Source of the DNA: Spirochaetales bacterium
GTDB lineage: Bacteria; Bacillota; Clostridia; Christensenellales; UBA1242
Assembly (NCBI GenBank): GCA_050178795.1
Contig: JBFXFT010000003.1
Location: 3,955 to 67,954, forward strand
Reading direction: 5' to 3'
DNA length: 64,000 nt
Shown in pieces: positions 9,807 to 18,493 of the stretch (positions are counted from its first letter, which is position 1; each line of letters opens with the position of its first letter). Both the position numbers and the translations under genes were made by a program. The notes under the pieces are model-generated. The model did no database searches and was not told where the DNA came from. It saw nothing but the letters and a program-made list of their open reading frames with translations.

Positions 9807-12422
9807 TTAATCTTCAAGTTTTTTTAGTGAATCTAGAATATTTTGCTCTAATTGTTTATTTTTGTCTAACGTTTTTTGAACCTCTTTTGCTTGTTCTGGA
9901 GCGTTAGCCACAAACCTTTCGTTACTTAGCATTCTGCTAGAACTTTCAATTTGTCGTCTTGTCTTTTCTAGTTCTTTTTCTAGTCTCTCTTTTTCCTTTT
10001 CAAAATCTATCATATCGCTAACTGGAAGATAAACTCTGCAATTTGCAAATACTAGTTCTGCCGCCTTGGCGTTTTCGTAAGTCTCAACATATTCTACACT
10101 CTTTGCGCCTGCAAGTTTTTCAATAAGTAGTTTAGAATTTATTAATAATTCCTTATTTTCAAGCGGAAGAATAATTATGCTAATTTTTTTATTGTCTGCA
10201 ACGCCCATATTTGCCCTCGTGTTTCTTATGGATTTTACTATTTCCATAATACTTTCCATTTCTAGGCTTGCTTGCTTGAATATTAACTTTTTATTTGCAA
10301 CTGGAAAAGCGCTCTTCATAATGGTTTTTTCGTGTTCTGGAAGGCTTAAATAAATCTCCTCCGTTGCAAAAGGAATAATTGGGTGTAGTAACTTTAAAAT
10401 GCGTTCTAACACATATAAAAGCACATTTACGGTCTTATTTTTGTTTTCTAAATCTTCACCATATAGGCTGGTTTTGCTAATTTCAATGTACCAGTCGCAG
10501 AACTTATTCCAAACAAACTCATAAAGTTCGTTTGTTGCTAAATTGTACTCAAATTTGTCATACAAATGAATTGTGTGCTCTATTTGTTTGTTTAGTTCGC
10601 TTAATATCCATTTATCTGCCATATCAAGTTTTTGGGTTTCAATGCTTTGTTTTTTGTAGCCATCAACATTCATCAAAACAAAGTTGCTTGCGTTCCAAAG
10701 TTTATTAATAAAATGGCTTGCACTCAAAATGTTTTCATTTTTATATCTGCTATCTTGCCCCGTACTGGTGTTAGATATTAAGGCAAACCTCATAGCGTCT
10801 GCGCCATAGTCCTTTATTATTTCAAGTGGGTCAACACCATTGCCTAAGTTTTTACTCATTTTGCGACCTAAACTATCTCTAATTAAGCCGTTTAAGTAAA
10901 CGTCGCTAAATGGAATTTTGCCTGTAAACTCTAACGAGGTAAATATCATACGAGCAACCCAGAAGAAAATAATGTCATACCCTGTAACCATTACATTGGT
11001 TGGAAAAAAGTAGTTCATTTCCTCTGTGTTTTCTGGCCAACCTAGTGTGCTATACGGCCAAAGTGCAGAACTGAACCATGTGTCAAGCACATTTTCGTCT
11101 TGCTTTATGTGAGTTCCACCACATTTAGAACATTTTGTAGGGGCATCAACCTCTACCATTATGTTTCCGCAATCTTCACAGCTGTAAACAGGTAGTCTGT
11201 GTCCGCTCCAAAGTTGCCTTGATATGCACCAATCTTGAATGTTATCCATCCAATTTATATAAACCTTTTCAAAGCGCTTTGGGTGAAAATCAATCTCTTT
11301 ATTTTTTACAACTTCAATGGCAGGTTTTGCTAAACCCTTCATCTTTACGAACCATTGCGTGCTTATTATTGGCTCTATCATGGTCTCGCAACGAGTACAA
11401 TGACTTGTTTTGTTTTTATGGTCCTCAATTTTTTCTATTAGACCTAGTTTTTCAAAGTCTTTTAAAATTTCTTTACGGCACTCTTCCCTAGTTAGGTTAG
11501 CATATTTGCCTGCAAACTCGTTCATAGTTGCATCGTCGTTCATAACTCTAATGCTCTCTAAATTGTGCCTTCTTCCTACTTCGTAGTCGTTAGGGTCGTG
11601 CGCTGGTGTAATTTTAACAACTCCGCTTCCAAAGTCCATTTCTACATATTCGTCTGCAATTACTGGAATAACCCTATTTATAATAGGAAGTATTACATTT
11701 TTGCCAACAATATTTTTGTATCTTTTATCATTTGGGTGTACTGCAACTGCGGTGTCACCTGGTATTGTTTCTGGTCTAGTCGTTGCAACAACAACATAGC
11801 CACTTCCATCTTCTAATGGGTACCTTAAATGCCAAAGTTTGCTTTTACTATCTTTATATTCAACCTCAATGTCGCTAATGGTCGTTTTACAACTAGGGCA
11901 CCAGTTTATAATCCTGCTACCTTCATAAATTAGACCTTTATTATATAGTTTAACAAAGGCAGTATTTACCGCCCTGTTCCTTTTTTCGTCCAAGGTAAAA
12001 GCAAGCCTGTCCCAATCACACGATGCGCCAATTTTTTTAATTTGACCAACAATGCGATCGCCATACTTCTTGTACCAATCGTTCATATGTCCTAAAAAGG
12101 CGTCTCTTCCAACCTCTTCCTTTGTAAGCCCTTGTTTTTTTAAATAGTCAACAACTTTTGCCTCCGTTGCAATAGCGGCGTGGTCCATACCAGGCAGCCA
12201 TAAAGCCTCATACCCTTGCATGCGTTTAAAGCGCGTAATTGCGTCTTGTAGCGACTTAGTGAACGCGTGACCTATATGAAGTTGACCCGTTATGTTTGGT
12301 GGTGGCATGATTATTGTAAAAGGTTTTTTGCTTTTGTTGACGACAGCCTTAAAATAACCCTCTTCTAGCCATGTATTGTAAATTCTATTTTCAATTTCGC
12401 TTGGATTATATTTTCTGTCCAT
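9807..12422 (-). CDS. valS: Valine--tRNA ligase
   Basis: PPPNITGQLHIGH, DWCISRQLWSGH, KMSK, C-terminal coiled coil. Confidence 0.98.
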   Translation of the reverse strand: MDRKYNPSEIENRIYNTWLEEGYFKAVVNKSKKPFTIIMPPPNITGQLHIGHAFTKSLQDAITRFKRMQGYEALWLPGMDHAAIATEAKVVDYLKKQGLTKEEVGRDAFLGHMNDWYKKYGDRIVGQIKKIGASCDWDRLAFTLDEKRNRAVNTAFVKLYNKGLIYEGSRIINWCPSCKTTISDIEVEYKDSKSKLWHLRYPLEDGSGYVVVATTRPETIPGDTAVAVHPNDKRYKNIVGKNVILPIINRVIPVIADEYVEMDFGSGVVKITPAHDPNDYEVGRRHNLESIRVMNDDATMNEFAGKYANLTREECRKEILKDFEKLGLIEKIEDHKNKTSHCTRCETMIEPIISTQWFVKMKGLAKPAIEVVKNKEIDFHPKRFEKVYINWMDNIQDWCISRQLWSGHRLPVYSCEDCGNIMVEVDAPTKCSKCGGTHIKQDENVLDTWFSSALWPYSTLGWPENTEEMNYFFPTNVMVTGYDIIFFWVARMIFTSLEFTGKIPFSDVYLNGLIRDSLGRKMSKNLGNGVDPLEIIKDYGADAMRFALISNTSTGQDSRYKNENILSASHFINKLWNASNFVLMNVDGYKKQSIETQKLDMADKWILSELNKQIEHTIHLYDKFEYNLATNELYEFVWNKFCDWYIEISKTSLYGEDLENKNKTVNVLLYVLERILKLLHPIIPFATEEIYLSLPEHEKTIMKSAFPVANKKLIFKQASLEMESIMEIVKSIRNTRANMGVADNKKISIIILPLENKELLINSKLLIEKLAGAKSVEYVETYENAKAAELVFANCRVYLPVSDMIDFEKEKERLEKELEKTRRQIESSSRMLSNERFVANAPEQAKEVQKTLDKNKQLEQNILDSLKKLED

Positions 12423-12454
12423 TACATTTTTTTCCTTTTTTTAATATGTAATTT

Positions 12455-12483
12455 ATTATAATCTACACAGCAAAATATGTCAA
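12455..12483 (-). promoter_or_regulatory. Sigma-A promoter of valS
   Basis: TTGACA-17 nt-TATAAT about 30 nt upstream of the ATG. Confidence 0.75.
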
Positions 12484-12528
12484 TGTTTAAGATAGGATTG
12501 TTCTTTATATGCTGACTTAAAAACCAAT

Positions 12529-14280
12529 TTAAGACCTTATTTCAATGTGAACGTCTTTTAGTTGACGCCTAGTTACCGTGTTTGGTGCGCCCATAAGCAG
12601 GTCTTGAGCTTTTCTGTTCATTGGAAAAGCCACAACCTCTCGTATGCTATCTTCGTCTAAAAGTAGCATCAAAATGCGTTCTATTCCTGGCGCTATGCCA
12701 GCGTGAGGCGGCACCCCATATTGAAAGGCGTTATATAGTGCGGCAAATTTGCTTTTTACATCTTCCTCGGTATAACCCGCTATTTCAAAAGCCTTTACCA
12801 TAACATCTATATCGTGGTTTCTAACTGCACCACTGCTAAGTTCCACGCCGTTTAGAACGAGGTCATATTGATAGGCTAAAATGTCAAGTGGTGCAAGTGT
12901 TTCTAGTGCTTTTAGCCCACCTTGTGGCATGCTGAATGGGTTGTGTGAAAACTCAATTTTTTGAGTATCATCATTAAATTCAAACATAGGAAAATCTGTA
13001 ATCCAACAAAATTTATATTCACCCTTTTTAATTAGGTCAAGCCTCTTTGCTATTTCCGTTCTAAGCGCTCCACTTAGCCTTGTAGCCACCTTAAAAGTGT
13101 CTGCAATAAAGAATATAGATGAGCCCTCGCTAGCCTCCGTTAGGCTTATTATTGCCTTCTTTTCGTCCTCACTTAAAAACTTAACAATTGGTCCAAATAA
13201 CTCACCATCTTGTAGCACTTTAAGCCATGCAAGACCCTTTGCGCCCTCTTTCATCATATCCTCGGTTAATCTTTCATAAAAACTCTTTGAAAGGTCTTTA
13301 ACATCTATGCTAATGGCTCTAACTTCTAAGCCTTTAAACGCTCCAAAAGATGTGTTTTTAAACATTTCTGTAAGATTTTTTATTATGATTGGGTTTCTTA
13401 AATCTGGCTTGTCTGTACCATATTTTTCTAATGCCTCTTTATAAGGAATTCTTATAAATTTTTCTTGAGAAACGGTGTATTTACCGTACTCTTTAAATAT
13501 TTTTGGTATTATGTCTTCAATTACTGCAAACACATCTTCTTGTGTTGCAAAACTCATTTCCATATCTAGTTGGTAAAACTCGCCTGGTGAACGGTCCGCC
13601 CTTGCGTCTTCGTCTCTAAAACAGGGCGCTATTTGGAAATATCTGTCAAAACCAGACGCCATAAGAAGTTGTTTAAACTGTTGTGGCGCTTGCGGAAGGG
13701 CATAAAACTGACCTGGATGCAACCTTGAAGGCACAATATAGTCTCTTGCCCCTTCTGGACTTGAAGAGGTTAAAATTGGGGTTGTAATTTCCAAAAACCC
13801 TAGTTCTGTCATATATTTTCTTATTGCCGAAACCACTTGACTTCTAAAAATTATTTTTTTATGCATCTCTGGGTTTCTTAGGTCTAAGTACCTATATTTT
13901 AAGCGCACTTCTTCGTTTACATGCATACTCTCCATAATTTCAAACGGCAGAGTATGTTCGCACTCGCTTAAAATTTCAAGTTCTTGTACCTTTATTTCAA
14001 CTGTTCCTGTGTTAATTTTTTCGTTTACCGTGTCAAGGCTTCGCTCTATAATTACACCTTCTACCGATATTACATCTTCCTTTGAAATTTTGTGTACGAA
14101 CTCGTCTGGCATAAGTAGTTGCATCATTCCATAGTGGTCCCTTAGGTCTACAAAGGTAATACCGCCGTGGTCGCGAATAGTGCTAACCCAGCCAGCAACC
14201 TTTACCCTCTCGCCTATTTTGTCTTCGGTAATTTCCTTACTTGTTAGAGTTCTATAACTCTGTTTAATTAGTTTTTCCAT
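12529..14280 (-). CDS. aspS: Aspartate--tRNA ligase, probably non-discriminating (Asp/Asn)
   Basis: RDHGG, YALPQAPQQFKQLL, FRDED, PPHAGIAPGIER; His in the RDHGG loop is typical of non-discriminating AspRS. Confidence 0.97.
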   Translation of the reverse strand: MEKLIKQSYRTLTSKEITEDKIGERVKVAGWVSTIRDHGGITFVDLRDHYGMMQLLMPDEFVHKISKEDVISVEGVIIERSLDTVNEKINTGTVEIKVQELEILSECEHTLPFEIMESMHVNEEVRLKYRYLDLRNPEMHKKIIFRSQVVSAIRKYMTELGFLEITTPILTSSSPEGARDYIVPSRLHPGQFYALPQAPQQFKQLLMASGFDRYFQIAPCFRDEDARADRSPGEFYQLDMEMSFATQEDVFAVIEDIIPKIFKEYGKYTVSQEKFIRIPYKEALEKYGTDKPDLRNPIIIKNLTEMFKNTSFGAFKGLEVRAISIDVKDLSKSFYERLTEDMMKEGAKGLAWLKVLQDGELFGPIVKFLSEDEKKAIISLTEASEGSSIFFIADTFKVATRLSGALRTEIAKRLDLIKKGEYKFCWITDFPMFEFNDDTQKIEFSHNPFSMPQGGLKALETLAPLDILAYQYDLVLNGVELSSGAVRNHDIDVMVKAFEIAGYTEEDVKSKFAALYNAFQYGVPPHAGIAPGIERILMLLLDEDSIREVVAFPMNRKAQDLLMGAPNTVTRRQLKDVHIEIRS

Positions 14281-14316
14281 CTTTTTTTCTCCATATTTGT
14301 TAGTTTTAAAGTCAAA

Positions 14317-14350
14317 ATAAAAAAATCTCGGGCAATTTCCCGAGATTTTA
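14317..14350 (-). terminator. Attenuator terminator in the aspS leader
   Basis: Minus strand AAAATCTCGGG-AAATTG-CCCGAGATTTTTTT, between the promoter and aspS. Confidence 0.85.
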
Positions 14351-14391
14351 AAACTTTTTACTTAATTTTAATCTACAACAAAATAACCCAT

Positions 14392-14451
14392 TTAAAATGT
14401 GTTCAATAAATTATTATTGTTGTTATTGTTGATTAAAATAAATTGTTTCAT
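14392..14451 (-). CDS. Asn-rich leader peptide MKQFILINNNNNNNLLNTF
   Basis: AAGGA RBS, ATG at 14451, 7 consecutive AAC/AAT codons, TAA at 14394-14392. Confidence 0.8.
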   Translation of the reverse strand: MKQFILINNNNNNNLLNTF

Positions 14452-14480
14452 TTGTTTTGTTCCTTAAATAAAGTAGCCTT

Positions 14481-14509
14481 AGTATATTTGATTTTTAACA
14501 AACTGTCAA
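14481..14509 (-). promoter_or_regulatory. Sigma-A promoter of the leader-aspS transcript
   Basis: TTGACA-17 nt-TATACT. Confidence 0.8.
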
Positions 14510-14510
14510 C

Positions 14511-14546
14511 AAAAAAATAAAAGTCCTTTAGTTATGGACTTTTATT
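14511..14546 (-). terminator. Terminator of the SipW/fibre operon
   Basis: ATAAAAGTCC...GGACTTTTAT hairpin followed by a T-run on the minus strand, just after the last gene. Confidence 0.7.
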
Positions 14547-14554
14547 CTATCTTT

Positions 14555-15115
14555 TTATTCTTCTTTACTTTTAGCGGTTTTTACAAAGTCAGCAATTTGA
14601 ATTGCCATAGCTATAAGTAGTGGAATGATTATTATTGTAACAAACAAAAGGGTGTTACTTAACATAGAGGCTAAAAACTTTATTATGGGCATTTCTCTAA
14701 CATATACGCCTTCAATTTTTGCAACCGTTATAATTTCTACATCTTCAACGGAGTTTGCGTCTCCCTTGGTTGTAAACCAAAGCACTCCCTCGTTGTCAGT
14801 AATTTGCGTTACCCTGTGCGTAATATAACTACCTGCGAGGCTACCATAATCGCTTTTATAGGTAATAATATCGCCTATCTGTATTTCAGTTGGGTCAGTG
14901 TCTTTAATTAAAATTACATCTCCAACATTTAGTGTTGGCTCCATACTTGCAGTCAAAATGTAGCAAACCGAGTAGCCAAACACAGTAATCATTTTGTTTT
15001 GAGAACGATAATAACTAAATAGAATGGCTGTAAAAGTAGATGCAACAATAAAAACGATTAATATAATTGAAATTACTTTATCTAATACGCGTCGGTTTTT
15101 TGTTTCTTCTTTCAT
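14555..15115 (-). CDS. sipW: Signal peptidase I, SipW/S26B type (copy 2)
   Basis: LTASMEP (catalytic Ser), ITHRV (His), TKGDAN; N- and C-terminal TM helices. Confidence 0.9.
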   Translation of the reverse strand: MKEETKNRRVLDKVISIILIVFIVASTFTAILFSYYRSQNKMITVFGYSVCYILTASMEPTLNVGDVILIKDTDPTEIQIGDIITYKSDYGSLAGSYITHRVTQITDNEGVLWFTTKGDANSVEDVEIITVAKIEGVYVREMPIIKFLASMLSNTLLFVTIIIIPLLIAMAIQIADFVKTAKSKEE

Positions 15116-15122
15116 TTTGCCT

Positions 15123-16928
15123 CTATTCTTCTAATTCTTTTAATTTTTGTATCAACTCTTCTAGTTTATACTTGTCATAATCCTCGTCAAAATCGTCTGA
15201 ACTACTATCATCTTCCTCTGGAAGTCCGTAGCCCATTAAAGACCCTTCCTCGTCACCTATTATTGGCAAGTCATCTATAGGAGAAGGTGCTATTGGCTCT
15301 TCAACTATTGGTTCTACAACATCAATTTGTTCAGTGTTTTCTGTCTCTTCACTAAGTCTTAAAGCCTCAATTTCGTCATCGGATAGTCCATCAACTTTAA
15401 TTGGCAATACTTTTAATTCGTCTTGCTTAGTCTCTTGGAACTTTAATACTTGTTCTTTATACTCTTTTAGTTTTTCTTCTTGATATTTCTTAATAGCATC
15501 GTTCAATTCTTTTTGCTTAATCTCTTGATACTTTAATACTTTCTCCCTTAACTCTTTGTCTCTTTGTTCTTTTATTCTTTGTTCTGCTTTTTCTTGAGTT
15601 ATTGGGTAATCTGCCATGTTAAGCGTATGTCTTGCTTCAGCAATGGCAACATTTTTGGTTCTAATTTGCTCTTCAATGCTATTGATTGTGCTTCGTAGGT
15701 CTCTAATATTTTGTTGTTCTTTCTCAATTAGCCTATGTTGTCTCATAACATCGTTTGCCATATCAACCATAATCTTATGTTTGTATTGCAAAGCCTCATG
15801 TTTAAATTGCAACAATTTATATTTATCTTCTAGAACTTCAATCTTTTTATTTAAAGGAGTTGTTTTTCTTTCAATAGCAACTCTAATTTTCTCTTCTAAT
15901 TCATCTTTTCGTCTTTGAATTTCAAGCTCTTTATTGCGCTTTTCAATTTCTTTTTCTAACTTTAATTGTTGTTTATAGTCTCTCTCTATGTGTCTTTTAA
16001 ATTCAGTATTAAACACAATTTCAGTTAAGAAGTTTGTAAACACGAAAACATCAGACAATTCATCGTCTGTCCTCTTTGGCATTTTGCCATCAAACGTTTT
16101 ATCTTCATAAGTATAACCTTTGCTGTTATACCTACTAATGTAATCCCATAAGTCCACACAAGTTTTAAAGTTAACGTTTTTTGTCAACAAGTTTGTTTGA
16201 ATAAGTGGTGGTTTAATAAGCTCTACGCCGTGTAATTCTTTAATTAATGGCAAAGAATAGAAGTCACTAATAATTCTTCTAATCCTTACAATTCTTCCAT
16301 AGCCAGAAAGATGTGAAACATCTTCTGTAACATCTACTTTTTGGTTATCTGCTTGAGTTTTATATGCAAACTCAAGAGTCATTGTAGACACTTTGTTTTT
16401 TCTTTTTACTGTTTTATTGATGTCATATTTTACATCAATGCGCTCATCTTTGTTTCTTAAATCCTCATAGCGCCTTTCAATAAATTCATTTAACCTTCCT
16501 AAAAGGGTAAAAAGGAACCTATTTTCATAAATAGCACTATTTGATTCATAATAAATATTTAATATTCTATCTGGTTTTACTTCATTATTTTTTTCTACCC
16601 TGGCAATCATATTTGTATGTTGTGCCAAGTGCCTAATGGATTGTGTATTTACTCTTTTAACCTTTTCAATAGGCACAATCTCATCTTTTTGTTCAATAAA
16701 TGTTCTAGACTCTCTTATTGCCTTATCCATAAAAGGCAATGTGGCTTCAATCTTTTCAAGCCATTCAAAATCCAGCAGTTTGTTGCCGACAACACCGCTT
16801 AAAAAGTTGTTTCCACTGGTATTATTGTGTAAAGATTCTTTGTAATCTTTATACTTCTTATCATCTTCCAGCGTACGTTTCCATGACATATACGCTTTAT
16901 AGAAATTAATAGAATAACTACTTTTCAC
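15123..16928 (-). CDS. DUF2357 (McrC N-terminal-like) protein with coiled coil and acidic tail; no nuclease domain seen
   Basis: EIVPIEKVKRV, SIRHLAQH, IYENRFLFTL, LLTKNVNF..LW pattern; follows an McrB-like gene; C-terminal half K/E/Q-rich heptads. Confidence 0.7.
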   Translation of the reverse strand: MKSSYSINFYKAYMSWKRTLEDDKKYKDYKESLHNNTSGNNFLSGVVGNKLLDFEWLEKIEATLPFMDKAIRESRTFIEQKDEIVPIEKVKRVNTQSIRHLAQHTNMIARVEKNNEVKPDRILNIYYESNSAIYENRFLFTLLGRLNEFIERRYEDLRNKDERIDVKYDINKTVKRKNKVSTMTLEFAYKTQADNQKVDVTEDVSHLSGYGRIVRIRRIISDFYSLPLIKELHGVELIKPPLIQTNLLTKNVNFKTCVDLWDYISRYNSKGYTYEDKTFDGKMPKRTDDELSDVFVFTNFLTEIVFNTEFKRHIERDYKQQLKLEKEIEKRNKELEIQRRKDELEEKIRVAIERKTTPLNKKIEVLEDKYKLLQFKHEALQYKHKIMVDMANDVMRQHRLIEKEQQNIRDLRSTINSIEEQIRTKNVAIAEARHTLNMADYPITQEKAEQRIKEQRDKELREKVLKYQEIKQKELNDAIKKYQEEKLKEYKEQVLKFQETKQDELKVLPIKVDGLSDDEIEALRLSEETENTEQIDVVEPIVEEPIAPSPIDDLPIIGDEEGSLMGYGLPEEDDSSSDDFDEDYDKYKLEELIQKLKELEE

Positions 16929-16963
16929 TTTTTACCTTTCCCATTTATTTTTTTATTTTTTTA

Positions 16964-18493
16964 TTATACTAGTTTTTGATATTCGCTTAGACATGCTTTA
17001 CATTCTTGCATACTCTCTTTTCCGAAGAGTTTGTCCATAAACTTAATTAATCCTTCAATTTCATCTCTTACATAAGACAAGTTCAAATATGCAAACTTAC
17101 GATAAACCTTTTTTGCCATTACATAGTCAATTCCGTTAAGTTCTGAACCACCACACGCCATGTAGGATGGAACGAATGTCTTTAATTGACGCAAAATACG
17201 GTTACCAAAAGCAAGTCTAAAATGTTGAATAACATAGTCGTCTAATTGTTCTAGTTTTTGCAAATTATCTTCTGAAACATGAAAATCCTTTATTGATTTT
17301 TCAATTAACATATTGAAGTGGTCAAAGCCAAGTTTCATAGCTGGGGTATCAGGTGCCTCAAATGGGGTACCCTTTGTATTGATATCAATAGGCATAGCTC
17401 TGTCGTAAACCTTATCTGTAATAGCGAATGTAGAGTCATCGTTATTGGCTGTTCCTATGTACCACATATTTTGAGGTATTAGTAACTTGCCGCCAACTAA
17501 TTTTTTAGGGTCATTGTCCCATACGCTTGCTACAAGTTCTACAATCCACTCATCCTTACTAGGCATTTCCAAAATAGATAGTAATTCTGCAAAGTAATAC
17601 TCAACCCTCGCAATGTTCATCTCGTCCATTACTGTTATGTATACTTCGTTTGTATAGTTTGCTATATACATTTGTTTTAATATATCTGTCTCTGTATATT
17701 TCTTAGTAAACTCGTTGAAATAACCAAATATTTCGGCTTTATCTCTCCAAGACGGTTGAACTGATGCAATAAGTGCATCGTTTTGTAAAAACTTACCCCA
17801 AGCGTAAGCAAGAGATGTTTTACCAGTTCCTGAAATACCTTGCAATATGATTAATCTTGTAGATGAGAATGAAGCGACGAATAATCTAATGATATCAATT
17901 GTGTAATAAAGTTTTAATTTTGAACAACAAAAATTTCTAAACCTTTCACAAAGTCCCGGTAAATCAATTTTGTTGTCATATTGTGGTGCAACATAATTTT
18001 CAAACATTTTATCAACTTCTGTAAGTTTATAAAACCTTGAAGTGTTGCTTTGTCCGTTGCTGTCCTCATTAAGAGACTCAAGTTCATCACCTGTCAGTTC
18101 GGAAATTTCATTTGGATTTAAACCTATTTGAGAAACCTTCATAGACAAAATTTTGTCTTTTTCAAGGTTAAGGCGCATAACTTCTTTGTTTAGGGAGTTA
18201 ACTTCTTTAACTAAGTCGTCTTGAACGACTGCCTTTTGTGCCATAACCATAAGTCTTTTTATACCACGAAAGATTAAGTAAATAATTCCTAAAAGGAAGC
18301 CAAAGACTAATAAAATACATAGAATTCCTACAATCCAAAACCAGCCACCCAGTTCTTCACTATAGGTTGCTATGGTGTTGCCATAGGTTACAACGTCAAA
18401 TGCTGTTAGAATACCGAATACAATTCCTTGTACTATTGTCAGTATGCCATCAAGCAATTGGCCGAAAAAATCTATAATAAAATTAGCCAACAT
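16964..18493 (-). CDS. Membrane-anchored McrB-like AAA+ NTPase
   Basis: Walker A GISGTGKT, VQPSW, Walker B DEMNIARVEYYFA, GTANNDDST (NxD), DKVYDRA; N-terminal hydrophobic helices plus short coiled coil. Confidence 0.85.
   Translation of the reverse strand: MLANFIIDFFGQLLDGILTIVQGIVFGILTAFDVVTYGNTIATYSEELGGWFWIVGILCILLVFGFLLGIIYLIFRGIKRLMVMAQKAVVQDDLVKEVNSLNKEVMRLNLEKDKILSMKVSQIGLNPNEISELTGDELESLNEDSNGQSNTSRFYKLTEVDKMFENYVAPQYDNKIDLPGLCERFRNFCCSKLKLYYTIDIIRLFVASFSSTRLIILQGISGTGKTSLAYAWGKFLQNDALIASVQPSWRDKAEIFGYFNEFTKKYTETDILKQMYIANYTNEVYITVMDEMNIARVEYYFAELLSILEMPSKDEWIVELVASVWDNDPKKLVGGKLLIPQNMWYIGTANNDDSTFAITDKVYDRAMPIDINTKGTPFEAPDTPAMKLGFDHFNMLIEKSIKDFHVSEDNLQKLEQLDDYVIQHFRLAFGNRILRQLKTFVPSYMACGGSELNGIDYVMAKKVYRKFAYLNLSYVRDEIEGLIKFMDKLFGKESMQECKACLSEYQKLV

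Follow-up and report, generated by a model that had tools for sequence, protein, structure and literature searches.

The minus-strand DNA directly upstream of aspS, the gene for a bacterial-type aspartyl-tRNA synthetase (AspRS), in a 64,000-nucleotide (nt) stretch of a Spirochaetales bacterium genome (GCA_050178795.1, contig JBFXFT010000003.1, positions 3,955 to 67,954; this whole stretch is referred to as the window) very probably carries a transcription attenuator of the ribosome-dependent, leader-peptide kind, with charged tRNA-Asn as the signal that it senses. This assignment is based on the arrangement of the leader, on computed RNA folds that change with the position of the ribosome, and on a family of homologous leaders in related genomes. 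An earlier note on the window had listed, in order on the minus strand, a promoter, an AAGGA ribosome-binding site, a 19-codon open reading frame (ORF) and a terminator followed by aspS, and all of these were found where it had placed them (Table 1). It had also proposed a ribosome-stalling attenuator that reads Asn-tRNA(Asn), and this proposal was supported by the leader family in relatives and by the codon-dependent folds.

The terminator between the leader and aspS is a hairpin with an 11-bp stem, 5 G-C pairs and a 6-nt loop (predicted free energy, ΔG, -15.1 kcal/mol). The aspS start codon lies 37 nt past the end of the leader element as extracted (terminator plus 9 nt), and the aspS product scored 772.3 bits against NF001750 (cut-off 443), aligning with profile positions 2-587 of 590. 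Upstream of the leader is a SipW-like signal peptidase gene (TIGR02228, 103.6 bits) with its gene end at 14555. Because this gene has a hairpin and T-run of its own, the leader terminator is not the terminator of the SipW-like gene, and the leader is therefore a separate transcription unit.

Table 1. Features of the leader-aspS region, in window coordinates. Regions 1 to 3 are predicted from computed folds.
Feature	Position	Strand	Remarks
Sigma-70-type promoter of the leader-aspS transcript	14481-14509	minus	11/12 consensus matches; 17-nt spacer
Ribosome-binding site of the leader ORF (AAGGA)	14461-14465	minus	ATG 9 nt further on; read from the sequence
Leader ORF, 19 sense codons and stop	14392-14451	minus	ATG at 14451; stop 14394-14392
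Putative Asn sensor, codons 8-14 (seven consecutive Asn codons)	14410-14430	minus	Read from the sequence
Eighth Asn codon of the leader (codon 17)	14403-14401	minus	Read from the sequence
Region 1, anti-antiterminator 5' strand (from within the Asn run into the codons that follow it)	14405-14423	minus	Ribosome-free fold
Region 2, partner of region 1 (no stalled ribosome) or of region 3 (stalled ribosome)	14364-14392	minus	Computed folds
Region 3, terminator 5' arm and loop with 3 nt from the start of the 3' arm	14330-14355	minus	Captured by region 2 in the antiterminator
Intrinsic terminator (attenuator) with T-tract to about 14314	14314-14349	minus	Stem 14349-14339 with 14332-14322
Bacterial-type aspS, 583 amino acids	12529-14292	minus	Ribosome-binding site 14292-14289; ATG 14280
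Hairpin and T-run closing the SipW-like signal peptidase gene	about 14511-14540	minus	Seen by eye; missing from the terminator scan; 9-nt loop

The run of seven asparagine (Asn) codons in the leader was the sole run of at least seven AAY codons on either strand of the 933,501-bp window genome (11 contigs, 33.6% G+C, rated 100% complete), and the number of such runs expected from base composition was 0.003 per genome. One further run of at least five AAY codons was present in the genome, within a 126-codon frame. A chance origin of the leader run is excluded.

To follow the predicted behavior of the leader, the nascent RNA of the window was folded to 4 nt into the 3' arm of the terminator with a ribosome represented by a mask that began at the 5' end and stopped 12 nt beyond the first base of the A-site codon. 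Pairing was scored over 21 terminator nt, made up of the 5' arm, the loop and 4 nt at the start of the 3' arm. As long as the A site was on codons 1-6, regions 1 and 2 were paired (ΔG -20.2) and only 0-5 of the 21 terminator nt were engaged by upstream RNA. With the A site on codons 7-18 the antiterminator folded (ΔG -13.1 at codons 8-17) and 15-16 of the terminator nt were engaged; once it had reached codon 19 or the stop codon, the mask covered region 2 and just 5 were engaged. Alternative folding had been suggested as a check in the earlier note, and the antiterminator was predicted only with a ribosome on codons 7-18. In the ribosome-free fold, regions 1 and 2 were joined by two helices (14423-14417 with 14381-14375, and 14415-14405 with 14392-14382), and the antiterminator paired 14389-14364 with 14355-14330 through 22 bp in five helices (ΔG -13.1 kcal/mol). 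The complementarities named in the earlier note, between the Asn codons and a downstream segment and between that segment and the terminator 5' arm, were seen in these folds inside larger helices. A narrower antiterminator, limited to pairing between the base of the terminator 5' arm and the end of region 2, was also considered and rejected as it was weak (-3 to -10 kcal/mol) and captured few nt; that version came from folding the nascent RNA to the end of the 5' arm, and adding the terminator loop gave fuller pairing. Together, the folds predict mutually exclusive terminator and antiterminator structures and an anti-antiterminator that shares sequence with the Asn codons, with the position of the ribosome selecting the fold.

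In the mechanism that we propose, transcription would begin at the promoter (14509-14481) and a ribosome would start on the 19-codon leader. When Asn-tRNA(Asn) is plentiful, the ribosome would reach the stop codon (14394-14392) and cover region 2 (14392-14364), the terminator (14349-14322) would fold, and transcription would end before aspS. When Asn-tRNA(Asn) is scarce, the ribosome would stall on the Asn run (14430-14410) or at the Asn codon at 14403, holding region 1 and freeing region 2, which could then pair with 14355-14330 (the 5' arm, the loop and the start of the 3' arm) as an antiterminator and so permit read-through into aspS. In the absence of translation, region 1 would pair with region 2 and the terminator would still form. 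From these analyses we infer leader translation, ribosome stalling and read-through, as well as the tRNA that the enzyme would use.

The closest relatives of the window genome are distant, with AspRS identities of at most 62%, and when 30 aspS upstream regions were compared, one other genome of the same taxonomic family (G012) had a homologous arrangement, in which a promoter and a ribosome-binding site precede a short Asn-run ORF, with a nucleotide block in common and a terminator. A search with that block led to two further genomes (G007 and G015) in which the same leader precedes asnA (TIGR00669, 321 and 326 bits, cut-off 292.8), the gene for aspartate-ammonia ligase. With 2 mismatches allowed, the block matched in 321 of 401 family genomes and a reversed-pattern control performed similarly, so that this search was uninformative, and the matches used were those with 0 or 1 mismatch. 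The asnA gene was present in 55 of the 401 sampled family genomes. We fetched 35 asnA loci and dropped 3 that had less than 300 nt of upstream DNA; 30 of the 32 that were kept had a short Asn-run ORF followed by an intrinsic terminator, the exceptions being L089 and L098. The genomes that host the asnA leaders are those of related uncultured Clostridia of approximately 1 Mb; one member of the clade, Candidatus Caccopulliclostridium, has been placed by NCBI in Clostridia incertae sedis.

In at least 17 of these 30 asnA loci (L081, L094, L107, L112 and others), a second conserved ORF follows the leader terminator and precedes asnA. It has a conserved core, Asn-Ala-Val-Ala-Gly-Glu/Asp, followed by Asp/Asn-rich codons, and it often ends in a mimic of a ribosome-binding site and then a hairpin that could sequester it. 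Based on its sequence, this ORF looks like a translational attenuator or an arrest peptide in tandem with the transcriptional one. A diverged form was present upstream of aspS in L014 and none was present in the window.

Conservation was assessed in an alignment of 23 of a set of 32 leaders, with those that had a double hairpin (L080 and L102) or no conserved block (L086, L087, L088, L091, L092, L103 and L104) left out. The ATG columns were invariant in the alignment, and all 32 leaders had an Asn run and a terminator; in each of them, an ATG opens the frame in which the Asn codons are read. The leader peptides ranged from 13 to 31 residues, with highly variable C-termini and stop positions, the stop codon lying either directly before the conserved region-2 block or 7-10 codons past it. 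The first part of region 2 is this block, a nucleotide sequence that is conserved whatever the reading frame, and it therefore points to selection on that part at the RNA level; the in-frame ATG and Asn codons point to translation of the first part of the leader. Comparable promoters were seen by eye before the homologous leaders.

Pairing was conserved as well. In the off-state structure (terminator and region 1:2), 87.3% of the alignment cells were paired compared with 81.8% after shuffling and 43-57% when the structure was slid along the alignment; the region 1:2 family helix was 90% paired, and 9 of the 12 terminator pairs had changes on both sides. The antiterminator was 82.5% paired, a value reached by 0 of 500 shuffles, compared with 76.8% for shuffled alignments and 39-51% when slid, and 9 of its 17 pairs changed on both sides. 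As judged from the alignment, compensatory changes have preserved the pairings of the terminator and of the antiterminator across the family.

The folding was extended to all 32 leaders, with the stalled state defined as a ribosome at the last Asn codon of the run. The mean number of terminator nt captured was 6.6 in the ribosome-free state, 11.9 in the stalled state, 3.4 with the ribosome at the stop codon, and 5.0 with shuffled upstream sequence. Capture in the stalled state exceeded that with shuffled sequence in 31 of the 32 leaders and that in the ribosome-free state in 28. In a separate duplex search, the RNA after the Asn run paired with the terminator, usually with its apical part, at a mean z of -2.39 against shuffles, and 18 of the 32 leaders were below -1.64.

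A covariance model, R1, was built from the 23 aligned leaders and the off-state structure. In the window genome it identified this element only (72.2 bits, E 8.6e-9), the next matches having E-values of 0.07 and 0.9. In 151 sampled family genomes it produced 35 matches at E<=0.001, in 30 genomes, and the genes downstream of these, named by NCBIfam and by the earlier reading of the loci, were gatC at the start of gatCAB (9 matches), bacterial-type aspS (8), the archaeal-type aspartate-tRNA(Asn) ligase (8), asnA (7) and asnS (1). The matches that directly precede genes for the synthesis of Asn or Asn-tRNA were thus 33 of the 35; 28 of the 35 were outside the training alignment, and 26 of these 28 preceded Asn-related genes. 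Conservation of the Asn run in relatives had been proposed as a check in the earlier note, and such leaders were found to recur before asnA, gatCAB, asnS and the genes of both AspRS types.

The two other matches had different contexts. One (L122, G064:C1:233959-234115, 95.1 bits) had no ORF of at least 80 amino acids within 900 nt downstream; it is a well-formed Asn leader that may be an orphan after gene loss. The other (L141, G077:C15:19738-19864) had a metG-like gene downstream, and its short ORF has four consecutive Gln codons, no Asn run, and a terminator. Judging by its sequence, it may be a different leader-peptide attenuator.

Several of the R1 loci linked the leader to transamidation. 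In G013 a leader (L152, G013:C5:266000-271800) heads gatC-gatA-gatB-aspS with a bacterial-type aspS and gaps of 3-12 nt, which is a complete transamidation operon, and based on spacing we infer the same gatCAB-aspS operon in G129, G067 and G110. A second bacterial-type aspS is present elsewhere in the G013 genome. In three genomes of one genus (G068, G111 and G142), aspS and gatC each have an Asn-only leader of their own. Codon content followed the type of AspRS gene downstream: all 8 leaders before the archaeal-type enzyme (L128, L132, L134, L137, L139, L142, L147 and L148) mix Asp with Asn codons, and 7 of the 8 before bacterial-type aspS, that of the window included, are Asn-only. Bacterial-type aspS was an accessory gene, present in 86 of the 151 family genomes. 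A mutual exclusivity of asnA and bacterial-type aspS, hinted at by the first 36 genomes, was rejected in the larger sample, in which 4 of 10 asnA-positive genomes have both. Beyond the family, R1 gave no match at E<=0.001 in 145 genomes of 41 other families of the order; the model is sequence-specific, so divergent leaders may occur there.

A translation-independent RNA switch, either a riboswitch or a leader that binds tRNA or protein in the manner of a T-box, with the ORF being incidental, is very unlikely as an explanation of these data. Such a switch would fit the conservation of the block at the start of region 2 in any reading frame. The window genome also uses T-boxes, with four (loci L006-L009, on contigs C1, C2 and C6) before pheS, thrS, ileS and glyS, just one of which reaches the Rfam gathering score, and relatives have T-boxes before aspS (L013 in G027, L029 in G031 and L038 in G050). 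When read by eye, the specifiers of these aspS T-boxes were GAC in G031, for Asp, AAC in the G+C-rich, order-level G050, for Asn, and ambiguous in the closest relative, G027. However, an Rfam scan of window positions 12000-17000 at E<=10 listed no T-box and only four chance-level matches, of which the one overlapping the element was Spd-sr07 (23.5 bits compared with a gathering score of 55, E 2.8); the same scan gave no match to the known Rfam amino-acid leaders (His, Leu, Thr, Trp and Phe). In addition, a ribosome-binding site, an ATG and an Asn run in its frame are retained in all leaders, the variation inside the runs is mostly synonymous (AAT/AAC), and the leaders of archaeal-type AspRS genes add Asp codons in frame. 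This pattern indicates a signal at the level of codons and not an RNA-binding one.

The attenuator might report the general speed of translation or stress and not asparagine specifically, since any slowing of the ribosome over codons 7-18 gives the same predicted fold. We consider this improbable because all members have Asn for their regulatory codons, or a mix of Asn and Asp before the archaeal-type AspRS gene, and because the R1 matches are confined, in 33 of 35 cases, to the genes of Asn and Asn-tRNA synthesis. There is still less reason to think that the peptide from the small ORF has a function of its own, for instance as a signal or as something bacteriocin-like, with the hairpin as the terminator of the ORF and aspS having a promoter of its own. 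The N-terminal part and the Asn run are alike between species, as is the C-terminal part in the major asnA group, which is what a conserved peptide would show; against this, the wide variation in stop position and C-terminus noted above extends across the leaders, the ORF is always on the same strand directly upstream of Asn-related genes, and the promoter scan reported none in the 37 nt between the leader element and the aspS ATG. That the ORF arose by chance in an A+T-rich intergenic region beside an ordinary terminator is untenable given the rarity of such a run and the homologous leaders in dozens of genomes, for all that AAT and AAC are common codons at this G+C content.

The reading of the element as an attenuator of aspS that responds to charged tRNA-Asn also has to be set against the genome in which it occurs. 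Two expectations of the earlier note were that gatCAB would be present in the genome and asnS absent. The first was borne out, as gatA (608.3 bits) and gatB (549.8 bits) were matched and gatC was read upstream, directly behind ligA and without a leader. The second was not, as asnS is present (621.9 bits) with a plain promoter. Neither asnA nor asnB was found in the window genome, which is rated 100% complete. A second AspRS, of archaeal type, matched the NCBIfam aspartate-tRNA(Asn) ligase (425.6 bits, cut-off 353) and also has a plain promoter. The tRNA-Asn of the window genome has U1-A72 and its tRNA-Asp has G1-C72; U1-A72 in tRNA-Asn has been reported for genomes using GatCAB for Asn (PMC4206432).

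The window AspRS has an RDHGG motif, as do four other leader-linked bacterial-type AspRS enzymes, and the bacterial-type AspRS of G163, whose leader mixes Asn and Asp codons, has RKLGG in its place. The His of the N-terminal RDHGG is reportedly a signature of non-discriminating AspRS from work on Pseudomonas aeruginosa, a rule that we did not find stated in the papers searched. The Asn-only leader, the operon in G013 and the co-regulated gatC genes in G068, G111 and G142 are indirect pointers that the window AspRS may be non-discriminating. In G001, which belongs to the genus of the window genome, the bacterial-type AspRS is 43% identical to that of the window, compared with 51-62% in other genera, a low identity that hints at paralogy of aspS or at its transfer within the family.

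With these features in mind, the simplest reading is that free asparagine would be imported and charged by asparaginyl-tRNA synthetase (AsnRS), and that a drop in charged tRNA-Asn would cause the attenuator to turn on an AspRS that feeds GatCAB. The purpose of the extra bacterial-type AspRS would be to make Asp-tRNA(Asn), which the constitutive GatCAB would amidate, and the benefit would be a supply of tRNA-borne asparagine in a genome without asnA and asnB.

A number of observations weigh against this interpretation or the strength of its support. As asnS is present, the cell is not dependent on the AspRS/GatCAB route for Asn-tRNA(Asn), and the charging of tRNA-Asn by the window AspRS is putative. 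Leader control of bacterial-type aspS was seen in just 12 of the 86 genomes that carry the gene, 8 of them directly and 4 through gatCAB-aspS, with 3 of these 4 inferred from spacing. The structures placed on the alignment were derived from one member (L081), the shuffle tests were inflated because the aligned sequences are related, the small apical hairpin of region 1:2 was without covariation, and RNAalifold alone, on a MAFFT alignment, recovered only 10 pairs. Capture in the stalled state exceeded that at the stop codon in 32 of 32 leaders, a contrast that was partly built in because wider masking removes pairing partners. All of the helices are A/U-rich and weak, and the antiterminator of the window, at -13.1 kcal/mol compared with -10.9 +/- 2.0 for shuffled upstream sequence, was better by only about one standard deviation.

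The surroundings of the leader-aspS unit were also surveyed. On the minus strand, aspS is followed by valS after a 106-nt gap that contains a perfect consensus promoter (12455-12483, 12/12 matches, minus strand), and the Rfam scan of this window region found no T-box or other Rfam element upstream of valS. Upstream of the signal peptidase gene, the minus strand of window positions 15123-18493 has a 601-residue ORF with no NCBIfam match and a 509-residue ORF with a weak McrB-like match (E 3.7e-6).

The classical enterobacterial leader-peptide attenuators control the trp, his, leu, thr, ilv and pheA operons, and that of pheST controls an aminoacyl-tRNA synthetase; leader-peptide attenuation is known for Trp, His, Phe, Leu, Thr and Ile/Val. 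The window leader resembles these systems in having a short, promoter-proximal ORF, here predicted to be translated, in which codons for the sensed amino acid follow one another, together with three mutually exclusive helices (1:2, 2:3 and 3:4) and, ahead of the structural gene, an intrinsic terminator, and it resembles pheST in that the regulated gene can be one for an aminoacyl-tRNA synthetase. In contrast to the classical systems, the window family would sense asparagine, its regulon takes in asparagine synthetase and the tRNA-dependent route (AspRS and GatCAB), its hosts are a clade of Clostridia with small genomes, and it has no sequence similarity to known leader families.

A closer functional parallel is the aspS-gatCAB operon of Clostridium acetobutylicum, which is under a tRNA-Asn-dependent T-box (Saad et al. 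2012, J Biol Chem, as cited in PMC4206432). On that account, the two systems are alike in that a shortage of charged tRNA-Asn relieves premature termination before AspRS/GatCAB genes, in Clostridia in which AsnRS is present, and the leader-gatCAB-aspS locus of G013 is the direct counterpart of the C. acetobutylicum operon. They differ in that the sensor proposed here is a translating ribosome on Asn codons instead of RNA that binds the tRNA directly, and there is no T-box sequence or Stem I. In Staphylococcus aureus, the ilv-leu operon reportedly has a leucine-rich attenuator peptide (PMC5794164), a case of leader-peptide attenuation in Firmicutes alongside T-boxes. Unlike the window leader, it concerns another amino acid and a biosynthetic operon only, and its sequence is unrelated.

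No asparagine leader-peptide attenuator was found in Rfam 15 or in open-access papers and preprints, supplements and subscription journals being outside the search, and two surveys of attenuators, searched by term, do not mention an asparagine leader peptide. The element would represent a new amino-acid specificity, and a coherent Asn and Asn-tRNA regulon, for a known mechanism in uncultured Clostridia with small genomes, with a prior description being possible.

As a more tentative extension, for which the odds are in our view somewhat below even, the codon make-up of a leader may reveal the tRNA that a given AspRS paralogue serves in vivo. In that case, an Asn-only leader would mark the bacterial-type AspRS as a dedicated maker of Asp-tRNA(Asn), in effect an asparagine-biosynthetic enzyme together with GatCAB, and a mixed Asn/Asp leader would mark the archaeal-type AspRS as the housekeeping enzyme of dual specificity. 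A clade of gut Clostridia with reduced genomes would then have built an asparagine regulon on one attenuator, placed before asnA, asnS, the genes of both AspRS types and gatCAB, and at asnA the second conserved upstream ORF, a possible arrest peptide, may provide backup.

If the proposed mechanism is correct, one switch would govern asparagine supply by either route, through AsnA or through tRNA-dependent synthesis by AspRS and GatCAB, in a lineage of Clostridia that would use the ribosome as a sensor where its relatives use T-boxes. The difference between Asn-only and Asn-plus-Asp leaders would allow the tRNA specificity of duplicated AspRS genes to be predicted from sequence alone. Recognition of these leaders would improve the annotation of abundant uncultured gut genomes, in which their ORFs of 13-31 codons are uncalled, and at approximately 150 nt the element may serve as a compact natural part for asparagine-responsive gene control.

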